A stretch of 64,000 nt of DNA, taken from assembly GCA_964461915.1 (NCBI GenBank), contig CAYWVD010000001.1, positions 90,211-154,210 of the forward strand. Reading direction: 5' to 3'. The stretch is from an uncultured Candidatus Saccharibacteria bacterium (lineage in GTDB: Bacteria; Patescibacteriota; Dojkabacteria; B142; OLB20). The position numbers were made by a program, and so were the translations under genes. Numbering within the stretch: position 1 is the stretch's first letter; the number at the start of each line of letters is the position of its first letter. The notes below the pieces were generated by a model. It had not been told where the DNA came from. It saw only the letters and a list, made by a program, of their open reading frames with translations, and ran no database searches. Of the stretch, positions 4,465 through 48,745 are shown piece by piece.

Positions 4465-5541
4465 TTATTTAGTATACGGTAGTTTGTCAAGATATTTATT
4501 AAAAATATTTTGAATTTCATCATAATGATTTACTTGAACTAATTCACTTCGAAGTTTGGATGCCCCTTCTATTGATTTTATATACCAAGCTAAATGTTTT
4601 CGAAGCGGTAAAATGTTTTGCCCTAAGACTAATTTATGGCGATCTGAATGTTCAAGCATAATTTTAAAGAGTTCTTCAATTTTAATCGGATTTAAACCTT
4701 GTGACTCATTAAATAGCCATGGTTTTCCAAGTGAGCCTCTGCCAATCAAGACTCCATCCAGATTATATGTTTCAGATTTTTCGATGCCTTCTTTATAGGA
4801 CAGAATGTCTCCATTACCTAAGACTTTGATTTTTTTGTTTTTCGATTTTATTAAACCTGCTGCCTTAGCGATAGCTTCCCAATTAGCATTACCAGTATAT
4901 AGCTGTTTAAAAGTTCTGCCATGTATTGCAATACAATCCGGTTCGGATTCAACTAGATAAGGAATCCACCTTTCAATTTCGTCTTCATAATATCCGATGC
5001 GGGTTTTCACCGAAACTGCTATATCTTTATTTATAGAGACTTCTGTGCCGAGTCTTTCAAATTCCTTTATTGTCGCTTTCAATTTTCCTTTAATTTTATC
5101 TGGTAGGTTTTCTTTTGAATCTATTGAATAATTCTCGACCGTTTTTTTTACTGAAGAGATTATTCTTTGAGCAATCTCCGGAGTTTTGATCAAACCCGCT
5201 CCGGCACCTCTTTCGGCTACATTTTTAGAAGGGCAGCCCATATTAATATCAATTCCATCAAAGCCTAATTCAATAGCAATAATAGTCGCATACTCAAAAA
5301 GTTTGGGATCATTTCCGAAAAATTGCGCCACAATTGGTCTTTGGTCCTTTTGGTAGAGCAATTTTTCGAGGATCAGCTTTGGAGCGTGGATTAGGCTGTC
5401 TACATTAACAAATTCAGTATAAATAACATCGGGAAGACTATATTTGGCAGTTATATACCTAAAGGGCTCGTCACTAACCCCATCCATTGGGGCTAGGCCA
5501 ACAATCTTTTTATCGAACTTATTCCAAAATGACATGGCCAA
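4465..5541 (-). CDS. dus: tRNA-dihydrouridine synthase (Dus family, TIM barrel)
   Basis: 'LAPMDGVSDEPFRYI' N-terminal motif and 'DINMGCP' catalytic Cys motif. Confidence 0.85.
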   Translation of the reverse strand: MAMSFWNKFDKKIVGLAPMDGVSDEPFRYITAKYSLPDVIYTEFVNVDSLIHAPKLILEKLLYQKDQRPIVAQFFGNDPKLFEYATIIAIELGFDGIDINMGCPSKNVAERGAGAGLIKTPEIAQRIISSVKKTVENYSIDSKENLPDKIKGKLKATIKEFERLGTEVSINKDIAVSVKTRIGYYEDEIERWIPYLVESEPDCIAIHGRTFKQLYTGNANWEAIAKAAGLIKSKNKKIKVLGNGDILSYKEGIEKSETYNLDGVLIGRGSLGKPWLFNESQGLNPIKIEELFKIMLEHSDRHKLVLGQNILPLRKHLAWYIKSIEGASKLRSELVQVNHYDEIQNIFNKYLDKLPYTK

Positions 5542-5552
5542 TAATAAAAAAT

Positions 5553-6230
5553 TTAGATAATTTTTGTGACAATTCCTTTGATTTCAGCCGCAATATCTTC
5601 CGGGCTTCTTAATTTGCCATCTTTCATGCAATTGATGAGCTTCCAATCTTTGCGTTCCTTACATAATCTCATCATAACTGCTTTTGCGTGTATTTGTACT
5701 TGTATGTTTTTTTCATTAATATCCTTTTTGTTTTTTAAATATGCACGCGCAGCTTTTTTGCCATTCAATTCTTTGGTAACTTCGGGATCGACAGATAAAG
5801 CCAAAACCAGGTCTGGTTTTACCAAGTTTAATTCTTTAAAAGCTGTGGTTTCTAACCAGTCTAGGTATTCATTTTTATCTTTAAGGACTTTAAAAAATCC
5901 AGTTTGAAAAATCATGCTTGAAGTCATATAACGATTACAAATTACGGATTTACCTTGTTCGAGGTCCTTTTTAAAAACATCAGATGCATCTTTTTGATCA
6001 AGAAGATAAAAAATTGACCTTAAATAAGGGTTTATTCTTGTGCCAAAATCGCCCCTAAGCATTCTGCCAACAACTCCGCCCCAATAATTATCGTAATATC
6101 TAGGGAAGTCATAAGTCACGAACTTGTCTTCCCCATAAGTCTTTACAAGGTATTTCGTTAAAAGATCTAATTGAGTTGCCTTCCCTGAGCCATCTAATCC
6201 TTCAAAAATGATTAATTTCCCTTTTTTCAT
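5553..6230 (-). CDS. tmk: Thymidylate kinase
   Basis: P-loop 'IIFEGLDGSGKATQ'; 225 aa. Confidence 0.85.
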   Translation of the reverse strand: MKKGKLIIFEGLDGSGKATQLDLLTKYLVKTYGEDKFVTYDFPRYYDNYWGGVVGRMLRGDFGTRINPYLRSIFYLLDQKDASDVFKKDLEQGKSVICNRYMTSSMIFQTGFFKVLKDKNEYLDWLETTAFKELNLVKPDLVLALSVDPEVTKELNGKKAARAYLKNKKDINEKNIQVQIHAKAVMMRLCKERKDWKLINCMKDGKLRSPEDIAAEIKGIVTKII

Positions 6231-6388
6231 AAAAATTTATTTTAATAAATATTTTAAATGCCTTGATAGGACTTTTTTATGGGAATTACTATTTTTATCA
6301 TTATCTTTTACAAGTACAAAATTTGCAAGTTATTATTTTTTGCTTCGTTTAAGATTTGAACTCTTTAAATTTTTATTATTAAAAACTC

Positions 6389-7000
6389 ATGGAAAATACT
6401 TACACTTTACCCAAATTGGATTATTCATTTGATGCTCTCGAGCCATCAATTGATGCTCAAACAATGGAAATTCATTATTCCAAACATCATCAAACATATC
6501 TCGATAAATTTATAGCTGCAATTTCTACTAAGCCCGAACTTAACGGTAAGCCAATTGAGGGATTGATCAAGAACCTGTATCAATTACCAGAAGATGTTCA
6601 AATGTCAATTCGAAATATGGGGGGAGGATACTACAACCACAATCTATTTTGGAATTCTATATCACCTAAAAAAGTTATCCCAGAGGCCTTAAAATCTAAA
6701 ATAGTTGAAGATTTCGGAACTTTTGAAAAATTCCAAGAGCTATTTACAAATGCTGCGCTTGGACTTTTCGGTAGCGGTTGGGCATGGCTTGTTAAAGATA
6801 ATTCAACACAAAAACTAAAAATATTAACAACTCAAAACCAAGACAATCCGATTAGTTCGTCTGATGTGACTATTCTTCTTGCGCTGGATGTCTGGGAACA
6901 TGCATATTATTTGAAATATCAAAACAAAAGGGCAGACTATGTAACAGCCTTTTGGAACATAATCAATTGGGATTATGCATTTGAGAATTTCAAGAAGTAA
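6389..7000 (+). CDS. sod: Superoxide dismutase, Fe/Mn family
   Basis: 'HYSKHHQTY' and 'DVWEHAYYL' metal-ligand motifs; 203 aa. Confidence 0.9.
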   Translation: MENTYTLPKLDYSFDALEPSIDAQTMEIHYSKHHQTYLDKFIAAISTKPELNGKPIEGLIKNLYQLPEDVQMSIRNMGGGYYNHNLFWNSISPKKVIPEALKSKIVEDFGTFEKFQELFTNAALGLFGSGWAWLVKDNSTQKLKILTTQNQDNPISSSDVTILLALDVWEHAYYLKYQNKRADYVTAFWNIINWDYAFENFKK

Positions 7001-38205: not shown

Positions 38206-39527
38206 TTGTTAGAAGAAATTATGTTAAATAATTCATTAGCTTGGGCAATAGCATAATTTGTGCCTCGATCATGCGGGAAGATCTGGGCAAAGTGAGCAAA
38301 AAGTAAACCATTTTGTCCTGATTTATATGATAGTATCTCGAAGTCGGTTGTTGCAATATGTTGGGCTTCAGGTGATTTAAAGAATTCAACGGATTCGATC
38401 TCCTGCTCATTAAATGCTGGGTTGATCTTTTTTAAATATTCAATGCATTTTTTTAGAAGTTCCTCTTTTGTCGATTTAAATAATTCTGAATTATTATCCG
38501 TGTATTTACCCAAATAAACTATTGTCTTATTATTGAATTTTGATTTTTCAATAAAATTCGTATGCTCAACCAAAGCCACAAATGGAGACTTTGTATCGTT
38601 TACGCTTGTCCAATAGAATTTACTTAAAGAGTTTTTTAGTGTCAAAATAAAACAATAGGCGCCAATAAATTTAATCTTTTTCAGTTTATCAGCATATTTT
38701 TTCGGTGGATTAAAAATCTGGATAAAGTGTTTTGGTGGTATAGTCGAGACAATAATATCAAACTTTTTTGTGACGGACTTATTTGCGTCGCCAGATGTAA
38801 ATTCAATTCTATGAGTGTCTTTAATCCTAGTATAGTTTGTAATTGACGAGTTTTTATAAATCTCTCCCCCTTGTTCAATTATCTTTTTTTCAAGACTATT
38901 AATCAGTTTATTGAAACTGCCGTCAATATATCCGAGTTTTTCATCCTTTGTGGGGAAATCTCTAGAACTTGATCTATCATGGATTCTTGTCCAAAACCAA
39001 GTCATAGCAATGTTTTTGTATTCACCTTCAAATTTTGATTCCAGCAAAGGCTTCCACATAACGGCTGTGACTGTTTTTCCGAAATATTTATTGCACCAAT
39101 CAAATGCAGTCCATTTTTCAAATTGCTTGATATTTTTTGTCTTTTGTAGATAGAAGCTGACAAGACCAAGTCTTAGCCTATTAAAAATATTTAATTTAGG
39201 GAAGGTCAGAATGTCTAATGCAGATGAGAATGTTAAAAGAGATTTGCCATCAAATAAGCCCATTTTGCTAGGTATCCATTGAATCGCATCTCCAATATTT
39301 AATTCGGTGAGTAAATTTTGTAAATCTATATCGCTTTTAAAGAAGTGATGGTAATATTTTTCTATGGGTTGATTTTCAATTTTTAAACCTGAAGCCAAAC
39401 CACCTAAAATGGGGGATTTTTCGATTATACTGACGATGAATCCGTTTTTTGATAGTCTGTATGCCAACGTAAGGCCCAAAATCCCGCCCCCGATGATTCC
39501 TATGGTAGGTAGTTTTGACTTTTGCAT
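38196..39527 (-). CDS. FAD/NAD(P)-binding oxidoreductase (amine-oxidase/protoporphyrinogen-oxidase-like fold)
   Basis: N-terminal 'IGIIGGGILGLTLAYRL...GGLASG' dinucleotide-binding motif; 443 aa; 10-nt overlap with the downstream YYY gene. Confidence 0.6.
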   Translation of the reverse strand: MQKSKLPTIGIIGGGILGLTLAYRLSKNGFIVSIIEKSPILGGLASGLKIENQPIEKYYHHFFKSDIDLQNLLTELNIGDAIQWIPSKMGLFDGKSLLTFSSALDILTFPKLNIFNRLRLGLVSFYLQKTKNIKQFEKWTAFDWCNKYFGKTVTAVMWKPLLESKFEGEYKNIAMTWFWTRIHDRSSSRDFPTKDEKLGYIDGSFNKLINSLEKKIIEQGGEIYKNSSITNYTRIKDTHRIEFTSGDANKSVTKKFDIIVSTIPPKHFIQIFNPPKKYADKLKKIKFIGAYCFILTLKNSLSKFYWTSVNDTKSPFVALVEHTNFIEKSKFNNKTIVYLGKYTDNNSELFKSTKEELLKKCIEYLKKINPAFNEQEIESVEFFKSPEAQHIATTDFEILSYKSGQNGLLFAHFAQIFPHDRGTNYAIAQANELFNIISSNKWN

Positions 39528-39604: not shown

Positions 39605-40963
39605 ATGAATACAGCAAAACTACAAGATCGAGATCCAGAAGTAAATTCCTTAATAGAAAAAGAATCCGAAAGACAAAGAACACATTTATCTTTAATTCCA
39701 TCTGAAAATATTTTTAGCCCTGCAGTTAGAGAGGCAGTTGGCTCAGTGTTTATGCAGAAGTATTCAGAGGGTAATGTCGGAGCAAGATATTACGAGGGGA
39801 ATGAATTTGTTGATGAACTCGAAAGATTAACAATGGATCGAGCTCGCAAACTTTTTAATCTTCCTGATGATTGGAGCGTCAATGTACAGGCATTAGCTGG
39901 AAGCAATGCGAATATTGCAGTATATCTTGGTATACTTCCGCCGGGTTCAACAATTCTATCGATGTATTTACCCGATGGTGGGCATTTATCACACGGCTGG
40001 TCATATTCGCCCCAAAAAGATAAAACATCTGTAAATGCTGAAGTTTATCTAGGTGGAACAAAAAAAGTTAACATTTCTTCGAGACTTTACAATATAGTCC
40101 AATACAAAACCGATCCAAAAACGCATTTATTTGATTACCATCAAATTCAAAAACTAGCTCAGGAGCACAAGCCCAATCTCATAATTACCGGTGGGACAGC
40201 TTATCCAAGAGATATTGATTACAAAAAGATGAAGGCGATAGCCGATTCTGTTGGCGCCTTGTATATGGCTGATATTGCTCATGAGGCAGGTTTAATTGCT
40301 TCTTCAGTCTTGAATTCTCCCGTTGGCATAGCCGATGTCGTCACGATGACTACCCATAAGACTTTACGATCAGGTCGTGGTGCAATAATTTTAGGCAAAA
40401 AAGACTTAATTAAAAAAATTGATAAAGGGGTTTTACCAGGGTTACAGGGTGGCCCATTCAATAATAATATAGCAGGAATTTGTGTAGGATTAGGCGAGGC
40501 TTTACAAAGTGATTTTAAAATTTATGCAAAAGCAGTTATTGATAATGCAAAAGTCCTTGCTGAGGCACTTAAAGGATACGGATTTGATTTATTAACTGGC
40601 GGTACCGATAAACACCTAATCCTAATTAATATGACCAATAAGGGAATCTTTGGGAAATATACTGCTAGAGCCCTAAATTATGCAGGTCTAGTGTGTAATA
40701 TGAACACAATGCCACAAGAAAATCGATCCCCAGCAGATCCATCTGCAATTCGTTTGGGGACTCCATCCGTCACAACTAGAGGTTTAAGAGCCAACGAAAT
40801 GAAGCTCATAGCCAAATGGATAAATTCGGTTGTTGAAGAAATTAAACCATGGGCAGAATTAGACTTCGAATCTTTTCAAGAAAAAGTTAAAAGCTCCTCG
40901 ATAATTCTTGGAATCAATAAAGAAGTAGAAGCACTTTGTGAAAAGTTCCCGGTCGGATTTTAA
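39605..40963 (+). CDS. glyA: Serine hydroxymethyltransferase
   Basis: 'SLIPSENIFSPAVREA', PLP-Lys motif 'VTMTTHKTLRSGRGAII'; 452 aa. Confidence 0.9.
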   Translation: MNTAKLQDRDPEVNSLIEKESERQRTHLSLIPSENIFSPAVREAVGSVFMQKYSEGNVGARYYEGNEFVDELERLTMDRARKLFNLPDDWSVNVQALAGSNANIAVYLGILPPGSTILSMYLPDGGHLSHGWSYSPQKDKTSVNAEVYLGGTKKVNISSRLYNIVQYKTDPKTHLFDYHQIQKLAQEHKPNLIITGGTAYPRDIDYKKMKAIADSVGALYMADIAHEAGLIASSVLNSPVGIADVVTMTTHKTLRSGRGAIILGKKDLIKKIDKGVLPGLQGGPFNNNIAGICVGLGEALQSDFKIYAKAVIDNAKVLAEALKGYGFDLLTGGTDKHLILINMTNKGIFGKYTARALNYAGLVCNMNTMPQENRSPADPSAIRLGTPSVTTRGLRANEMKLIAKWINSVVEEIKPWAELDFESFQEKVKSSSIILGINKEVEALCEKFPVGF

Positions 40964-41505
40964 ATTGAGGTCGCAATAGATTCGATCTTCCAAGATCCTT
41001 CAGATTTACCAAGTGTAATAAATCTTGTATTTTGGCCTTGATCCCATATAGGTTCATGAGCATTGGGTTTAAATTGGATATTGATCTGAACCTCAAACAT
41101 TGGGTTCTTTTTATCAGATTCTTCCGTTAGTCTATTTATGCTTATTACTTCAACTTTCTCGAAATGAGAAAATGTAACTCCATAAGCTTGAAGAATTGAA
41201 TTTAATTGTGGGGGCTCTTCACCAACTAGTTTTGTACTCAAGAGATTAAGTGCTAGCCCAATTTCGTCCTTATCTAAATATTCGAAGAACATTCTTACCG
41301 TATCTTCATCTGAATTGTCAGTTGTTGTAGTTACTGTAGTAGTGGGAGATGCTTGAACTTCTTCGCTACCATTATATAAATGATTCAAGTTTTGATCGAA
41401 ATCATTTGAAGACTTGGTCTGTTGATTAATTACAACAATAATAAGCGCTATTAAAAGAATTAGGGGGATAAATCCTATAGCAAAAATCATAGTATTTTTA
41501 TTCAT
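40960..41505 (-). CDS. Hypothetical membrane-anchored or secreted protein (N-terminal TM, poly-Thr spacer, about 110-aa alpha+beta domain)
   Basis: ORF with N-terminal hydrophobic helix and 'TTTVTTTTD' spacer; no family recognised. Confidence 0.4.
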   Translation of the reverse strand: MNKNTMIFAIGFIPLILLIALIIVVINQQTKSSNDFDQNLNHLYNGSEEVQASPTTTVTTTTDNSDEDTVRMFFEYLDKDEIGLALNLLSTKLVGEEPPQLNSILQAYGVTFSHFEKVEVISINRLTEESDKKNPMFEVQINIQFKPNAHEPIWDQGQNTRFITLGKSEGSWKIESIATSI

Positions 41506-41535: not shown

Positions 41536-42036
41536 TCAAAAGTTCGTTGAAATGAAAGCATCGCAATTTATATCAAAAGGTCTTACGCCAGTTACTTGTC
41601 CCGAAGCCCTCCATAAAAAATGAGTTCCATTAGCTCCAAGATTTTCAATTGTATATCCCAATTGAACTTTTAAGATTTCTTGCATTGGAATTAAATTCTT
41701 TGAAGTCCATCTGGAGTATTTAACTCCCCGGTCTGATGAAGTGATTGCAACATCGCTAGTAAAAAAAGTTAAAAAGCCACCATCGCCCACATGGCTATAG
41801 ATTGTATTAACAGCCGCAGCCCATAGTATTCGGCCTAAATGCTGATTCCTGTTCGCAAAATCTAATCTAAAAAAAGTCCTCCAATATTCTGATATATCAT
41901 TTAATTCAGGGTATAAATATGATATGGGAATAGAATCTCTATAGAAATTAGCTTCCCCTAAAAATTTCCCATCACCTTGAAATTGATAACTTATTCGTCC
42001 TAATGGGTCAGTGATTTGTGATGGAATTATATGCAT
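41536..42036 (-). CDS. Small GNAT-like protein, paralog 3 of a tandem triplet
   Basis: Aligns by eye with 42754-43290: 'QHLGRILWAAAV' ~ 'LHKGIGVYAWAL', 'YSRWTSKNLIPMQEILKV' ~ 'YTNWSSKQINFMHSLLSV', 'THFLWRASGQ' ~ 'EHIIWEALNG'. Confidence 0.45.
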   Translation of the reverse strand: MHIIPSQITDPLGRISYQFQGDGKFLGEANFYRDSIPISYLYPELNDISEYWRTFFRLDFANRNQHLGRILWAAAVNTIYSHVGDGGFLTFFTSDVAITSSDRGVKYSRWTSKNLIPMQEILKVQLGYTIENLGANGTHFLWRASGQVTGVRPFDINCDAFISTNF

Positions 42037-42053
42037 CCCTTATGAAGTAAAAA

Positions 42054-42215
42054 TTATATTTGGTCTTGAATAACTAATGGGTATTCAGAATAATCACTAT
42101 CAAAATGTGCAGAATATCTTGCAACTCGGGCTATTTTACCATTAGGATTAAATGAAAGTATATCCACATGTGGATAGTTAAAGTCTTTTGTGTCAGGTAT
42201 GCCAAATATTTTCAA
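42054..42215 (-). pseudogene. Remnant N-terminal fragment (about 53 codons, no ATG) of a fourth paralog of the GNAT-like family
   Basis: Translation '(L)KIFGIPDTKDFNYPHVDILSFNPNGKIARVARYSAHFD...' parallels 'MRIFGIPIQSEKAVNPMSTIAIADQNGELVGRFDAFVS' of 42754-43290 and ends at a TAA 18 nt before paralog 3. Confidence 0.35.
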
Positions 42216-42254
42216 TTTAAAAATATATTAAAGTTAAATATAAAAAAGTTAAAT

Positions 42255-42731
42255 TTAATTCCCCCAGGCATTAGATAAATCACATGAACGAACTTGTCCT
42301 TGAGTACCCCAAAACCACCAATGCGAGCCGTAATCATTTACACCAGAAATAAATTGGTTAATTCTGAGTCCGAAAAATTTCACCAGGTTTTGTTGCACAT
42401 CACCAATATGTTTTGTAGTCCAATTATTATCAGATGCATCTACTGTGAAAAAATATGATTCCTTAAGTTTTCTGTCGTATAGTAATTGGGCTATAGACTT
42501 AGACCATAATGGGACTCCATATCTTTGCCCGGGCTGCTGAATGTCGAGAAATCCTTGCCAGACATGCGGTTCCTGTAACATACGGTATGCTAAATCTAGA
42601 TATGAATTATAGCTAGGTCTTAGAGGAGTTTGCCAAAAAGTCATAGAACCAATTTCTAAACCTTTGTCGTCAATGTATTTATATTTCGAAACACTTTTTG
42701 TCATAACTTCTTTTTTTGGAATCAAAATCAT
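42255..42731 (-). CDS. Small GNAT-like protein, paralog 2
   Basis: 'QRYGVPLWSKSIAQLL' and 'NWTTKHIGDVQQNLVKFFGL', 'SHWWFWGTQGQ' correspond to the conserved blocks of paralogs 1 and 3. Confidence 0.45.
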   Translation of the reverse strand: MILIPKKEVMTKSVSKYKYIDDKGLEIGSMTFWQTPLRPSYNSYLDLAYRMLQEPHVWQGFLDIQQPGQRYGVPLWSKSIAQLLYDRKLKESYFFTVDASDNNWTTKHIGDVQQNLVKFFGLRINQFISGVNDYGSHWWFWGTQGQVRSCDLSNAWGN

Positions 42732-42753
42732 AATAAACGCATCAAATATAATA

Positions 42754-43290
42754 TTAAATATCTAAGTAAAAATGATCATTTTTAAAATTCTCAGAGCTCC
42801 CTGACCTTGGTATCGGTCCATTTAGAGCTTCCCAAATAATATGCTCGCGGCCTTCATAATCATCTTCCCAAAATCTATTTACTGAAATATCAAACTTAAC
42901 ACTAAGTAAGGAATGCATAAAATTAATTTGTTTACTTGACCAGTTAGTGTATGGACCAAAAGGTTTTAATTTATCTTTAGCTTGATCAATTGTATAAAAA
43001 ACCTTAGTTAAACCAGATTGAGATTTCAAAAGGCCCACAACTCCAAGTGCCCATGCGTATACTCCAATCCCCTTGTGTAAATAAGGGGCTTCAAGTTCAA
43101 CATGTGAAATCCAGGCCCCATTTTGAATCAATTTATCATATATTCCACTTGGGTAAACAAATGGCGAAAAACTTCTTGAAACAAAGGCATCAAATCTCCC
43201 AACAAGTTCACCATTTTGGTCAGCTATCGCAATGGTTGACATTGGGTTAACTGCCTTTTCACTTTGTATTGGTATGCCAAATATTCTCAT
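42754..43290 (-). CDS. Small GNAT-like protein, paralog 1 (178 aa)
   Basis: 'ISHVELEAPYLHKGIGVYAWALGVVGLL' resembles GNAT motif A (h-V-x-x-x-x-R/K-G-x-G-x-x-L). Confidence 0.45.
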   Translation of the reverse strand: MRIFGIPIQSEKAVNPMSTIAIADQNGELVGRFDAFVSRSFSPFVYPSGIYDKLIQNGAWISHVELEAPYLHKGIGVYAWALGVVGLLKSQSGLTKVFYTIDQAKDKLKPFGPYTNWSSKQINFMHSLLSVKFDISVNRFWEDDYEGREHIIWEALNGPIPRSGSSENFKNDHFYLDI

Positions 43291-43374
43291 TCGAAATTAT
43301 ATCATAGATATATACCAATTTTAAACCCACTTTTTCTACTTTACAAAAAAAAATCATCGTGTAACAATTTAGCT

Positions 43375-44148
43375 ATGAATCTAATTGCTATAGCAAAAGC
43401 GTTGGGTGTTGATGATATTACATCTCCGACTATTCCTTTTGTCCCTCCAACGGGGACTGTTACTGGTTTACCTACTACCACCGATAGTCCAACAACTGGG
43501 GCGAGTATCTCATTAAAGGCCGATGTAACAAGTATTAAGAAAGATACAGAAACTGATATCAGTGTCATCATATTCAGTAATTCGGAGGAGATAAAATCTT
43601 TAAAATTTACAGTTTCTTATGATCCCAATATTTTTGAAATAGTTGATGGTAGCGATTCTGAAGCTGGTGTTCAAATCCATTATTTAAATTCTTTTTTTGT
43701 AACAAGTAAAAATTCAGTTGATACAGTTAATGGAATAATAACACTTGAAGCAGGTTCCCAAACAGGTACAGCTACTATTAGCAATAGAACAATAGCAAAA
43801 ATCAAAGTTAAGGCCTTAAAAGATGGAATCGGTGAGTTTCGAGTAGTTAAAGATCAATCAAATCTTTTGAAAAGTGATGGGACAAATGTCTTGGTTCAAA
43901 TTCAGGGTGTTACTTTGAGAGTTGGAGAAGGTCAGTTGACTGGGACTCCGAGTGTTAGTACTTCTGTAACTGGTAGCACTACTGGATCTCCCACTGGAAG
44001 TGATATTCAAAAGCCCTTTGATAAGACTCCGGATACTGCTCTATTTGATACACCAGGGAGTATATCGGCTGTGGTTGGGGGTCTTTTCTTGATTGTCACT
44101 GGAATATATTTATACAAGAAGAAGGGTAGCCATGATTTACAGCGCTGA
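43375..44148 (+). CDS. Secreted surface protein with a beta-sandwich (cohesin-like?) domain and a C-terminal 'TPDTALFDTPG'-TM-KKKGSHDLQR sorting-signal-like tail; start taken at the Met of MNLIAIAKALG
   Basis: Thr/Pro/Gly linkers around a roughly 140-aa domain (FTVSYDPNIFEIV...GIITLEAGS); C-terminus = motif + hydrophobic helix + basic tail. The upstream 37 codons of the tracked ORF overlap the convergent gene, so they were excluded. Confidence 0.4.
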   Translation: MNLIAIAKALGVDDITSPTIPFVPPTGTVTGLPTTTDSPTTGASISLKADVTSIKKDTETDISVIIFSNSEEIKSLKFTVSYDPNIFEIVDGSDSEAGVQIHYLNSFFVTSKNSVDTVNGIITLEAGSQTGTATISNRTIAKIKVKALKDGIGEFRVVKDQSNLLKSDGTNVLVQIQGVTLRVGEGQLTGTPSVSTSVTGSTTGSPTGSDIQKPFDKTPDTALFDTPGSISAVVGGLFLIVTGIYLYKKKGSHDLQR

Positions 44149-48322: not shown

Positions 48323-48745
48323 ATGGTTGCAGAATATCAAACAATTAAAATCCAAGATGTCGAAGAAATTGTGGAATTTCTAAAATTCCGCCATTTAATA
48401 CCCGAAATCGAGGCCCAAAAGCTAAATGATTTTATTAAAAGGAATCCCGAAACCTCGGTAAAAGCGGTCATAGATAATAGAATCATTGGATTGACTCTTG
48501 TTAGTTTTGATGGCATCAAAGGACAAATCTATAAATTGGTAGTAGATGAAGATTATAGAAGTCATGGAATAGGGCGTGCACTAATACAAGAGGCAATTGA
48601 TAGATTGAAGATTCTACATGCGGTGGAAATTTCAATTAATTGCCGTCCACTTTTAATTAAATGGTATGAATCACAAGGCTTTCAAAAGATTGAATCTACT
48701 CACTATGCTAGGCCGATTGATTCAGAATTAAATAACTTTTGCTAG
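48323..48745 (+). CDS. GNAT-family N-acetyltransferase
   Basis: Motif A 'YRSHGIGRALIQEAI'; 140 aa. Confidence 0.7.
   Translation: MVAEYQTIKIQDVEEIVEFLKFRHLIPEIEAQKLNDFIKRNPETSVKAVIDNRIIGLTLVSFDGIKGQIYKLVVDEDYRSHGIGRALIQEAIDRLKILHAVEISINCRPLLIKWYESQGFQKIESTHYARPIDSELNNFC

Follow-up and report, generated by a model that had tools for sequence, protein, structure and literature searches.

Organization of the array

The window (the whole 64,000-nt stretch of DNA analyzed here) was assigned to a sparsely sampled, low-GC (33%) lineage of the candidate phyla radiation (CPR)/Patescibacteria. On its minus strand, at 41536-43290, it harbored a tandem array encoding a family of small proteins and composed of three intact genes plus one remnant: (i) C178 (42754-43290; 178 aa), the first array gene and a C-type member; (ii) B158 (42255-42731; 158 aa), the second gene and a B-type member, which lacked a 9-residue beta5-alpha4 loop in the family alignment; (iii) F53 (42054-42215), a 53-codon C-type remnant of a fourth copy; and (iv) A166 (41536-42036; 166 aa), the last family gene and an A-type member. 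A preliminary description of the same DNA had presented these four open reading frames (ORFs) as recently duplicated, partly decayed GNAT-like paralogs, and its coordinates and lengths were exact. The family proteins were of soluble type, displaying no hydrophobic segment, signal peptide, or membrane segment.

The gaps separating C178, B158, F53, and A166 were 22, 39, and 17 nt, followed by 30 nt to a downstream 181-aa gene, and such short distances between co-oriented genes suggest that the array constitutes one transcription unit. An 84-bp intergenic region lay between C178 and a divergent 257-aa gene (43375-44148), and it contained a promoter-like site (TTTAAA-18-TATAAT with a TG extension, TG-n-TATAAT; 43296-43325, minus strand), which was a consensus match only. 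The end of the -10 element was located 5 nt (43295-43291) from the C178 ATG, so the C178 transcript may be leaderless or near-leaderless.

Paralogy of the array genes and identity of the fourth copy

Each pair of array proteins was compared by Smith-Waterman alignment against 500 shuffles. A166/B158 scored 70 (shuffles 30.5 +/- 5.4; z = 7.3), A166/C178 scored 62 (z = 6.2), and B158/C178 scored 69 (z = 7.2), with the observed score reached by 0/500 shuffles in every pair; A166, B158, and C178 were recognized on this basis as true paralogs, as had been proposed. The 181-aa neighbor gave z about 0 in the same comparison and was unrelated to the family. The alignment of the three paralogs contained 19 invariant columns, and the residues G31, P47, W80, T100, D102, W117, and W153 were kept across these roughly 20%-identical proteins. 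The shared blocks listed in the preliminary description were present, but its motif strings were approximate: [NR]-W-[ST]-[ST]-K was found in all three paralogs, while the preceding Y-[ST] was absent from B158; likewise, H-x-x-W was found in all three, while the G-Q tail read G-P in C178.

F53 aligned start-to-start with the N-terminus of C178 (protein Smith-Waterman z = 5.2, 0/500 shuffles). At the DNA level, a 26-nt repeat (42196-42221 versus 43271-43296; 85% identity, including 15 nt in a row without mismatch) placed the TTG of F53 exactly at the position of the C178 ATG. The claim of a decayed fourth copy that reproduces the family N-terminus was upheld by both comparisons; its description as ATG-less was accurate in that no ATG was present, but the alternative start codon TTG opened F53. 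About 120 C-terminal codons were lost from F53, and the fragment was identical in two contigs (L001 and L083). Because F53 had an MRIFGIP-type (IFGIP) start and A166 possessed its own complete N-terminus, F53 was identified as the stump of a second C-type copy.

States of the locus in related genomes

The gene order PGM–ApbE–surface protein/family/181-aa gene–SHMT–oxidoreductase was conserved in all close relatives, and the copy-number variation that the preliminary description had proposed to look for was found in four states at this one syntenic locus: (a) the full array (C, B, stump, and A) in the window, in SRR29243436 (99.8%), and in SRR12489245-7 (100%); (b) a 1,373-bp deletion in five samples, ERR3438382/4/8/9 and ERR14964769, with flanks 96.6-99.4% identical; (c) C, B, and A types all present as pseudogenes in the same order in the sister species L005, the neighbor proteins of which were 85-92% identical; and (d) a single intact C-type gene, P0004, in the species L002, with neighbor proteins 75-93% identical.

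The deleted segment of state (b) was delimited to 41621-42993 by blastn of the window against L073, L074, L075, and L077 together with the junction sequence. The junction sequence also revealed the 8-bp microhomology TTTTTTAT at both breakpoints on the minus strand, at 42994-43001 on the C side and at 41613-41620 on the A side; removal of most of the array in these same-species strains was a microhomology-mediated deletion. At the junction, codon 99 of C178 ran into the A166 tail in the wrong reading frame; the resulting 108-aa product (P0001/P0012/P0015/P0016) was also present in ENA and JGI data. As for state (c), the C copy had at least two frameshifts plus an in-frame stop, the B copy had lost its start and acquired a frameshift, and the A copy was reduced to a tail of approximately 40 codons with an in-frame stop; the flanking genes of L005 were intact, which argues against assembly error as the source of these pseudogenes. 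In state (d), P0004 was intact in seven contigs from at least six samples and had three polymorphic sites.

The decay noted earlier for the array was confirmed by the deletion strains, the L005 pseudogenes, and the F53 stump. The family was dispensable and, being so, was lost through deletion and frameshift in an ongoing birth-and-death process; selection on it was most likely weak or fluctuating.

Orthology groups, which included the reconstructed L005 pseudogenes, displayed the following identities: C178 shared 60% with the L005 C pseudogene and 39% with P0004; B158 shared 48% with the L005 B pseudogene/P0005; and A166 shared about 64% with the tail of the L005 A pseudogene. Because each paralog had its own ortholog in L005 while the paralogs shared only 17-24%, the triplication was assigned an ancient origin, older than the divergence between the species of the window and that of L005. 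The duplication had earlier been called recent; with paralogs approximately 20% identical versus 39-60% for orthologs, that dating did not hold, and the recent part of the history was the decay. Family members shared 42-47% amino-acid identity versus 75-93% for neighboring proteins, indicating far faster divergence.

Strain differences between the window and L073 were sharply clustered on an approximately 99.9% identical background: 30 differences within 180 bp at 39129-39308 (FAD-oxidoreductase gene) and 17 within 140 bp at 43084-43221 (C178). The C178 cluster had eight synonymous versus five nonsynonymous codons and no adenine bias. A diversity-generating or hypermutation origin of this cluster was rejected in view of the mixed changes, the lack of adenine bias, and the similar cluster in the oxidoreductase gene, and both clusters are consistent with imported recombination tracts rather than with targeted mutagenesis.

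Distribution of the family

No match to any family member was found among Pfam, NCBIfam, PADLOC, and PHROG models or PDB sequences. An exhaustive profile search of 1.84 billion representative proteins returned seven proteins: three clusters of the array itself, one artifact (P0006), and three genuine relatives, namely, P0004 (174 aa), P0005 (147 aa), and P0007 (158 aa), all located on related low-GC CPR contigs. No further relatives were found in word-indexed searches of 5.8 billion proteins or, with the C-type alignment, the B-type alignment, and P0007 as queries, among JGI metagenome contigs and IMG/VR. A scan anchored on SHMT was applied to 185,579 species genomes, and the region near SHMT contained no further family members in 66 other genomes. 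At species level, the nearest genome was a metagenome-assembled genome (MAG) bearing the label 'uncultured Candidatus Saccharibacteria', with 85% identity in SHMT; this MAG and L002 were one and the same. It was followed by candidate division WS6 OLB20 (SHMT 60%), in which SHMT had no family member beside it. Among the papers listed in a literature search, none was relevant judging from titles or abstracts. The family was previously undescribed, lineage-restricted, and nearly orphan.

P0007 had a genomic context different from that of the array locus, and a neighboring DUF2085 protein matched WS6 OLB20. A 73-aa ORF (L004, 811-1032, plus strand) ended 2 nt before P0007 and might be a functional partner of it; this ORF matched no Pfam or PHROG model and had no counterpart in the window. 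P0006 (7,492 aa, E 4.5e-16) was rejected as a relative: its score was a sum over approximately 20 repeats, each below 8.1 bits. The P0006 residues from approximately 4700 to 7000 were composed of tandem repeats of approximately 115 aa ('...T-x-D...K-L-T-N-W-A-G-S-Q-F-T-D-V-Q...'), providing a cautionary example of a false positive in profile searching.

Predicted fold and motif A

A model built with AlphaFold 2 (AF2) from three sequences was poor (pLDDT 62), and a model from six sequences reached pLDDT 77.5 and pTM 0.81. The latter had predicted strands at 59-66, 97-101, 137-145, and 148-155 and helices at 76-90 and 119-133, with a loop between the first strand and the first helix; this order of elements resembles that of the GNAT C-terminal core. 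In Foldseek comparison of this model with PDB, the top 50 matches were essentially all GNAT-superfamily proteins (EsaI/MesI/TofI, SpeG, dopamine N-acetyltransferase, and PAT); the first model likewise retrieved almost only GNAT-superfamily proteins at the top, and a fold search of BFVD retrieved viral N-acetyltransferases. The probabilities of the fold matches were 0.9-0.99.

The window also carried a genuine 140-aa GNAT (Acetyltransf_10/1/7; 48323-48745, plus strand) at 5 kb from the array, conserved among the relatives (75% identity in L002); outside motif A, no sequence similarity between this protein and the family was detectable. A homolog search with the window GNAT gave only two close orthologs, and a small GNAT profile built with three PDB-derived GNAT segments was used as the hhalign target. 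Only one segment aligned, family residues 62-92 with beta4–motif A–alpha3 (probability 32%, P = 4.8e-4), in a register that set 'YLHKGIGVYAW' against 'YRSHGIGRALI' of the genuine GNAT; the score was 29.2 versus 10.3 +/- 1.7 in 400 column shuffles (maximum 19.2).

Motif A has the consensus Q/R-x-x-G-x-G/A and is located in the beta4-alpha3 loop. The family members displayed three versions of it: (i) complete in P0007 (QGQGLA); (ii) with both glycines kept and Leu instead of Q/R at position 1 in C178 (LHKGIG) and P0004 (LRQGYG); and (iii) with Gly kept at position 6 and the first Gly, at position 4, replaced by His in A166 (RNQHLG) or by Arg in B158 (PGQRYG) and P0005 (RGLRLG). The C-type copies C178 and P0004, together with P0007, accordingly carried the motif in register with RSHGIG of the true GNAT.

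On the model, the invariants W80, T100, D102, W117, and W153 fell within alpha3 (the helix of motif A) and the last core strand, and where beta5 ends and alpha4 starts. In GNATs, cofactor and substrate are bound in this part of the fold; by analogy with this superfamily architecture, the family invariants would sit in the putative cofactor/substrate cleft. The model partly supports a very divergent, remote version of the GNAT fold, recognizable by structure and not by sequence.

Neighboring genes

The 181-aa gene (40960-41505, minus strand) encoded an N-terminal membrane helix and a Thr-rich linker and matched DUF4829 weakly (E 3.6e-4, short of the Pfam cutoff). This gene was found downstream of the family in all relatives, even where the family was deleted, and its divergence resembled that of the family: 46% identity in L002 and 71% in L005 versus 75-93% for neighbors. 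Within the L002 species, it had 17 polymorphic codons versus three in the adjacent family gene. The ends of the convergent SHMT (39605-40963, plus strand) and 181-aa genes overlapped by 4 nt (40960-40963), an arrangement kept in L002, L005, and L073.

On the other side, the gene divergent from C178 (43375-44148, plus strand) encoded a 257-aa surface-type protein with a borderline match to the cohesin Pfam model (25.4 bits versus a cutoff of 24.1); its orthologs were located at 5143-5916 in L073, 3926-4675 in L005, and 9177-9917 in L002. The C-terminus was composed of a conserved TPDTALFDTPGS, a hydrophobic helix, and KKK, and this module, in full (K/R)TPDTALFDTPGSISAVVGGLFLI(V/I)TG(I/F)YLYKKK, was strictly conserved in three species, in contrast to the diverging central part; the N-terminus (MNLIAIAKALGVDD...) was unlike a classical signal peptide. 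Window ORFs of at least 120 aa contained no TLxTC sortase motif. The adjoining gene had been described as encoding a surface protein with a sorting signal: a surface-type protein with sorting-signal-like C-terminal architecture was indeed present, but the signal was not LPXTG.

The rest of the neighborhood belonged to core metabolism: SHMT, FAD oxidoreductase, DUF2298, FolD, ApbE, PGM, NTP-transferase, the true GNAT, and transaldolase/RPE/RpiB. Neither a compositional anomaly at the array nor mobile, phage, or defense genes in its neighborhood were found; with these core-metabolism surroundings and no compositional anomaly, the array displayed no sign of recent transfer.

Functional interpretation

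The reading favored here, with about even confidence, is that the family proteins are soluble accessory acyl-CoA-type transferases with a GNAT-derived fold and diverged specificities, encoded by an old, decaying, lineage-restricted array. As soluble cytoplasmic enzymes, they would bind an acyl-CoA-type donor in the beta4-loop-alpha3/beta5/alpha4 cleft and pass the acyl group to an amine of a small molecule or peptide. Specificity would have diverged among the three paralog types, and the A- and B-types, with His or Arg for the first motif A Gly, might differ in cofactor binding or lack it. Expression of the array would probably start in the divergent promoter region, common to it and the surface-protein gene, and cover the genes as one unit.

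Several points weigh against this reading. While its evolutionary part was observed at the locus itself, enzyme activity, cofactor, and substrate are read by analogy throughout. None of the six members matched a GNAT-family hidden Markov model (HMM) of Pfam or NCBIfam at E <= 10, and the family profile matched no GNAT among PDB sequences, even at E <= 10; the window GNAT, used as a positive control, had matches to eight GNAT models of Pfam and to 42 GNATs of PDB. The better AF2 model was based on an alignment of six sequences only, and its N-terminal half was beta-beta-beta-alpha, unlike the canonical beta1-alpha1-alpha2-beta2-beta3. The fold matches were weak, with none at E <= 1e-3 and TM about 0.35-0.47, and motif A was incomplete in A166 and B158. 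Allelic variation was too low (three sites in P0004; full-array contigs 99.8-100% identical), and orthologs were too saturated, for estimation of dN/dS.

An alternative is a new family of soluble alpha/beta proteins without evolutionary descent from GNATs, its resemblance being analogous or a shallow-alignment AlphaFold artifact and its function being, e.g., that of a ligand-binding protein, a regulator, or a pseudoenzyme. This alternative would explain the missing GNAT HMM and PDB sequence matches, the Foldseek results (E >= 1e-3 and TM < 0.5), the atypical N-terminal topology, the A- and B-types without the first motif A glycine, and the low hhalign probability over only 30 columns. It is nevertheless judged unlikely: in three fold searches of two libraries, the best-ranked proteins were nearly all of the GNAT superfamily and had high probability; the sole profile-profile match was motif A itself, in the structurally correct register and far above shuffles; and P0007 had a perfect Q-x-x-G-x-A. 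The GNAT-like label of the preliminary description was borne out for the remote fold and for the motif-A-like segment in register, but not for membership at the sequence level. Membership in the described GNAT, FemX, and TacT/AtaT families was checked, with no HMM match at E <= 10. FemX/FemABX proteins are about 330-420 aa in length and contain two GNAT-like domains; the family proteins had no FemAB match and were single-domain proteins of 158-178 aa.

The favored reading, that of GNAT-derived transferases, places the family closest to the small N-acetyltransferases of the Pfam clan Acetyltrans (SpeG, phosphinothricin/streptothricin acetyltransferases, AAC(6')-Ib, and RimI/YpeA). The two groups were alike in single-domain size (about 160-180 aa), in the motif-A-like loop, and in the hhalign match, and perhaps also in the predicted beta4-alpha3-beta5-alpha4-beta6-beta7 core; such proteins dominated the fold-search matches. 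The family differed by having no HMM similarity, TM about 0.4, an atypical N-terminal half, His/Arg for the first motif A Gly (A and B), and its own invariant W80, W117, and W153.

It is improbable that the array is a conflict cassette, i.e., one of immunity, anti-effector, or host-interaction factors in which tandem amplification, rapid divergence, and presence/absence polymorphism would be marks of an arms race, possibly connected with the rapidly evolving surface proteins encoded next to it in an episymbiotic CPR cell. The far higher divergence of the family than of its neighbors, the strain-level deletion polymorphism together with the sister-species pseudogenes, and the very narrow taxonomic range would fit such a role, as would the surface protein (65%) and the 181-aa membrane protein (46%) being the fastest-evolving neighbors versus 75-93% for the others. 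However, no toxin, secretion-system, RHS/LXG/WXG, or defense gene was located within about 10 kb; there was no PADLOC match; the family contained no signal peptide or membrane segment; and there were no mobile elements or compositional anomaly. Moreover, the pattern was one of net loss, not amplification, and the single copy was monomorphic and stable in one species. The conflict or effector-immunity reading offered earlier gained no direct support from these data.

A more speculative reading, which is quite improbable, would make the family a CPR-specific GNAT offshoot acting in the interaction of the episymbiont with its host or community, e.g., by acylating and neutralizing host-derived antibiotics or surface molecules; the A/B paralogs, without the first motif A Gly, would then be cofactor-independent binders or regulators, and the presence/absence polymorphism would reflect fluctuating host-dependent selection.

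GNAT toxins of toxin-antitoxin modules (TacT, AtaT, ItaT, and KacT), which acetylate aminoacyl-tRNA, resembled the family in being small GNAT-fold proteins of accessory nature and variable occurrence; a size of 158-178 aa with a GNAT-like fold, together with the 73-aa ORF that precedes the distant member P0007 by 2 nt, would suit this assignment. It is very improbable, as the 17-39 nt gaps of the array held no ORF and no small partner gene was found in or beside the array, in agreement with the earlier remark that no antitoxin-like partner was evident; the toxin reading raised alongside that remark was accordingly not sustained. The 73-aa ORF matched neither RHH/DUF1778 (the antitoxin type absent from the array) nor any other family. 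Known GNAT toxins are readily recognized by Acetyltransf_1-type HMMs, unlike the family proteins, which also had no PADLOC match, and three toxins in a row without partners, here in core-genome surroundings, would be lethal.

An assignment to LuxI-like synthases of acyl-homoserine lactones (AHLs) or N-acyl amino acids is scarcely plausible. These enzymes resembled the family in GNAT-related fold and length, and EsaI, MesI, and TofI were the top three PDB matches of the six-sequence model (E 1.4e-3 to 2e-2), but TM was only 0.36-0.44, and there was no Autoind_synth Pfam match at E <= 10. LuxI enzymes have a conserved N-terminal Arg/Phe/Trp/Asp/Asp/Arg set, to which the family invariants did not correspond; the family lacked recognizable LuxI catalytic residues, no LuxR-type partner was located nearby, and the host was a minimal-genome CPR bacterium.

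That the genes are non-functional ORFs that merely happen to stay open would fit decay in several lineages and the lack of annotation anywhere, but it is hardly credible given the invariant residues kept across approximately 20%-identical paralogs, the confident and compact predicted fold, and the intact orthologs across species and samples.

Evolutionary mode and significance

The locus shared with other birth-and-death tandem paralog arrays the old duplications, the truncated remnant, the microhomology deletion, the pseudogenes in a sister species, and the single copy elsewhere. Birth-and-death is an evolutionary mode to which no function is assigned, and the present case differed in displaying loss only, with no expanded-array lineage found. 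The locus is a dispensable accessory gene cluster and not a new kind of system; it opens no new mechanism and answers no long-standing question.

What it adds is an extremely rare, undescribed family to GNAT-like fold space and a well-resolved case of birth-and-death among accessory genes of a reduced CPR genome, with the array visible in four states: intact, with a stump, cut down by deletion at an 8-bp microhomology, and reduced entirely to pseudogenes. It serves as a case study and warns that tandem paralogs need not mean recent amplification.

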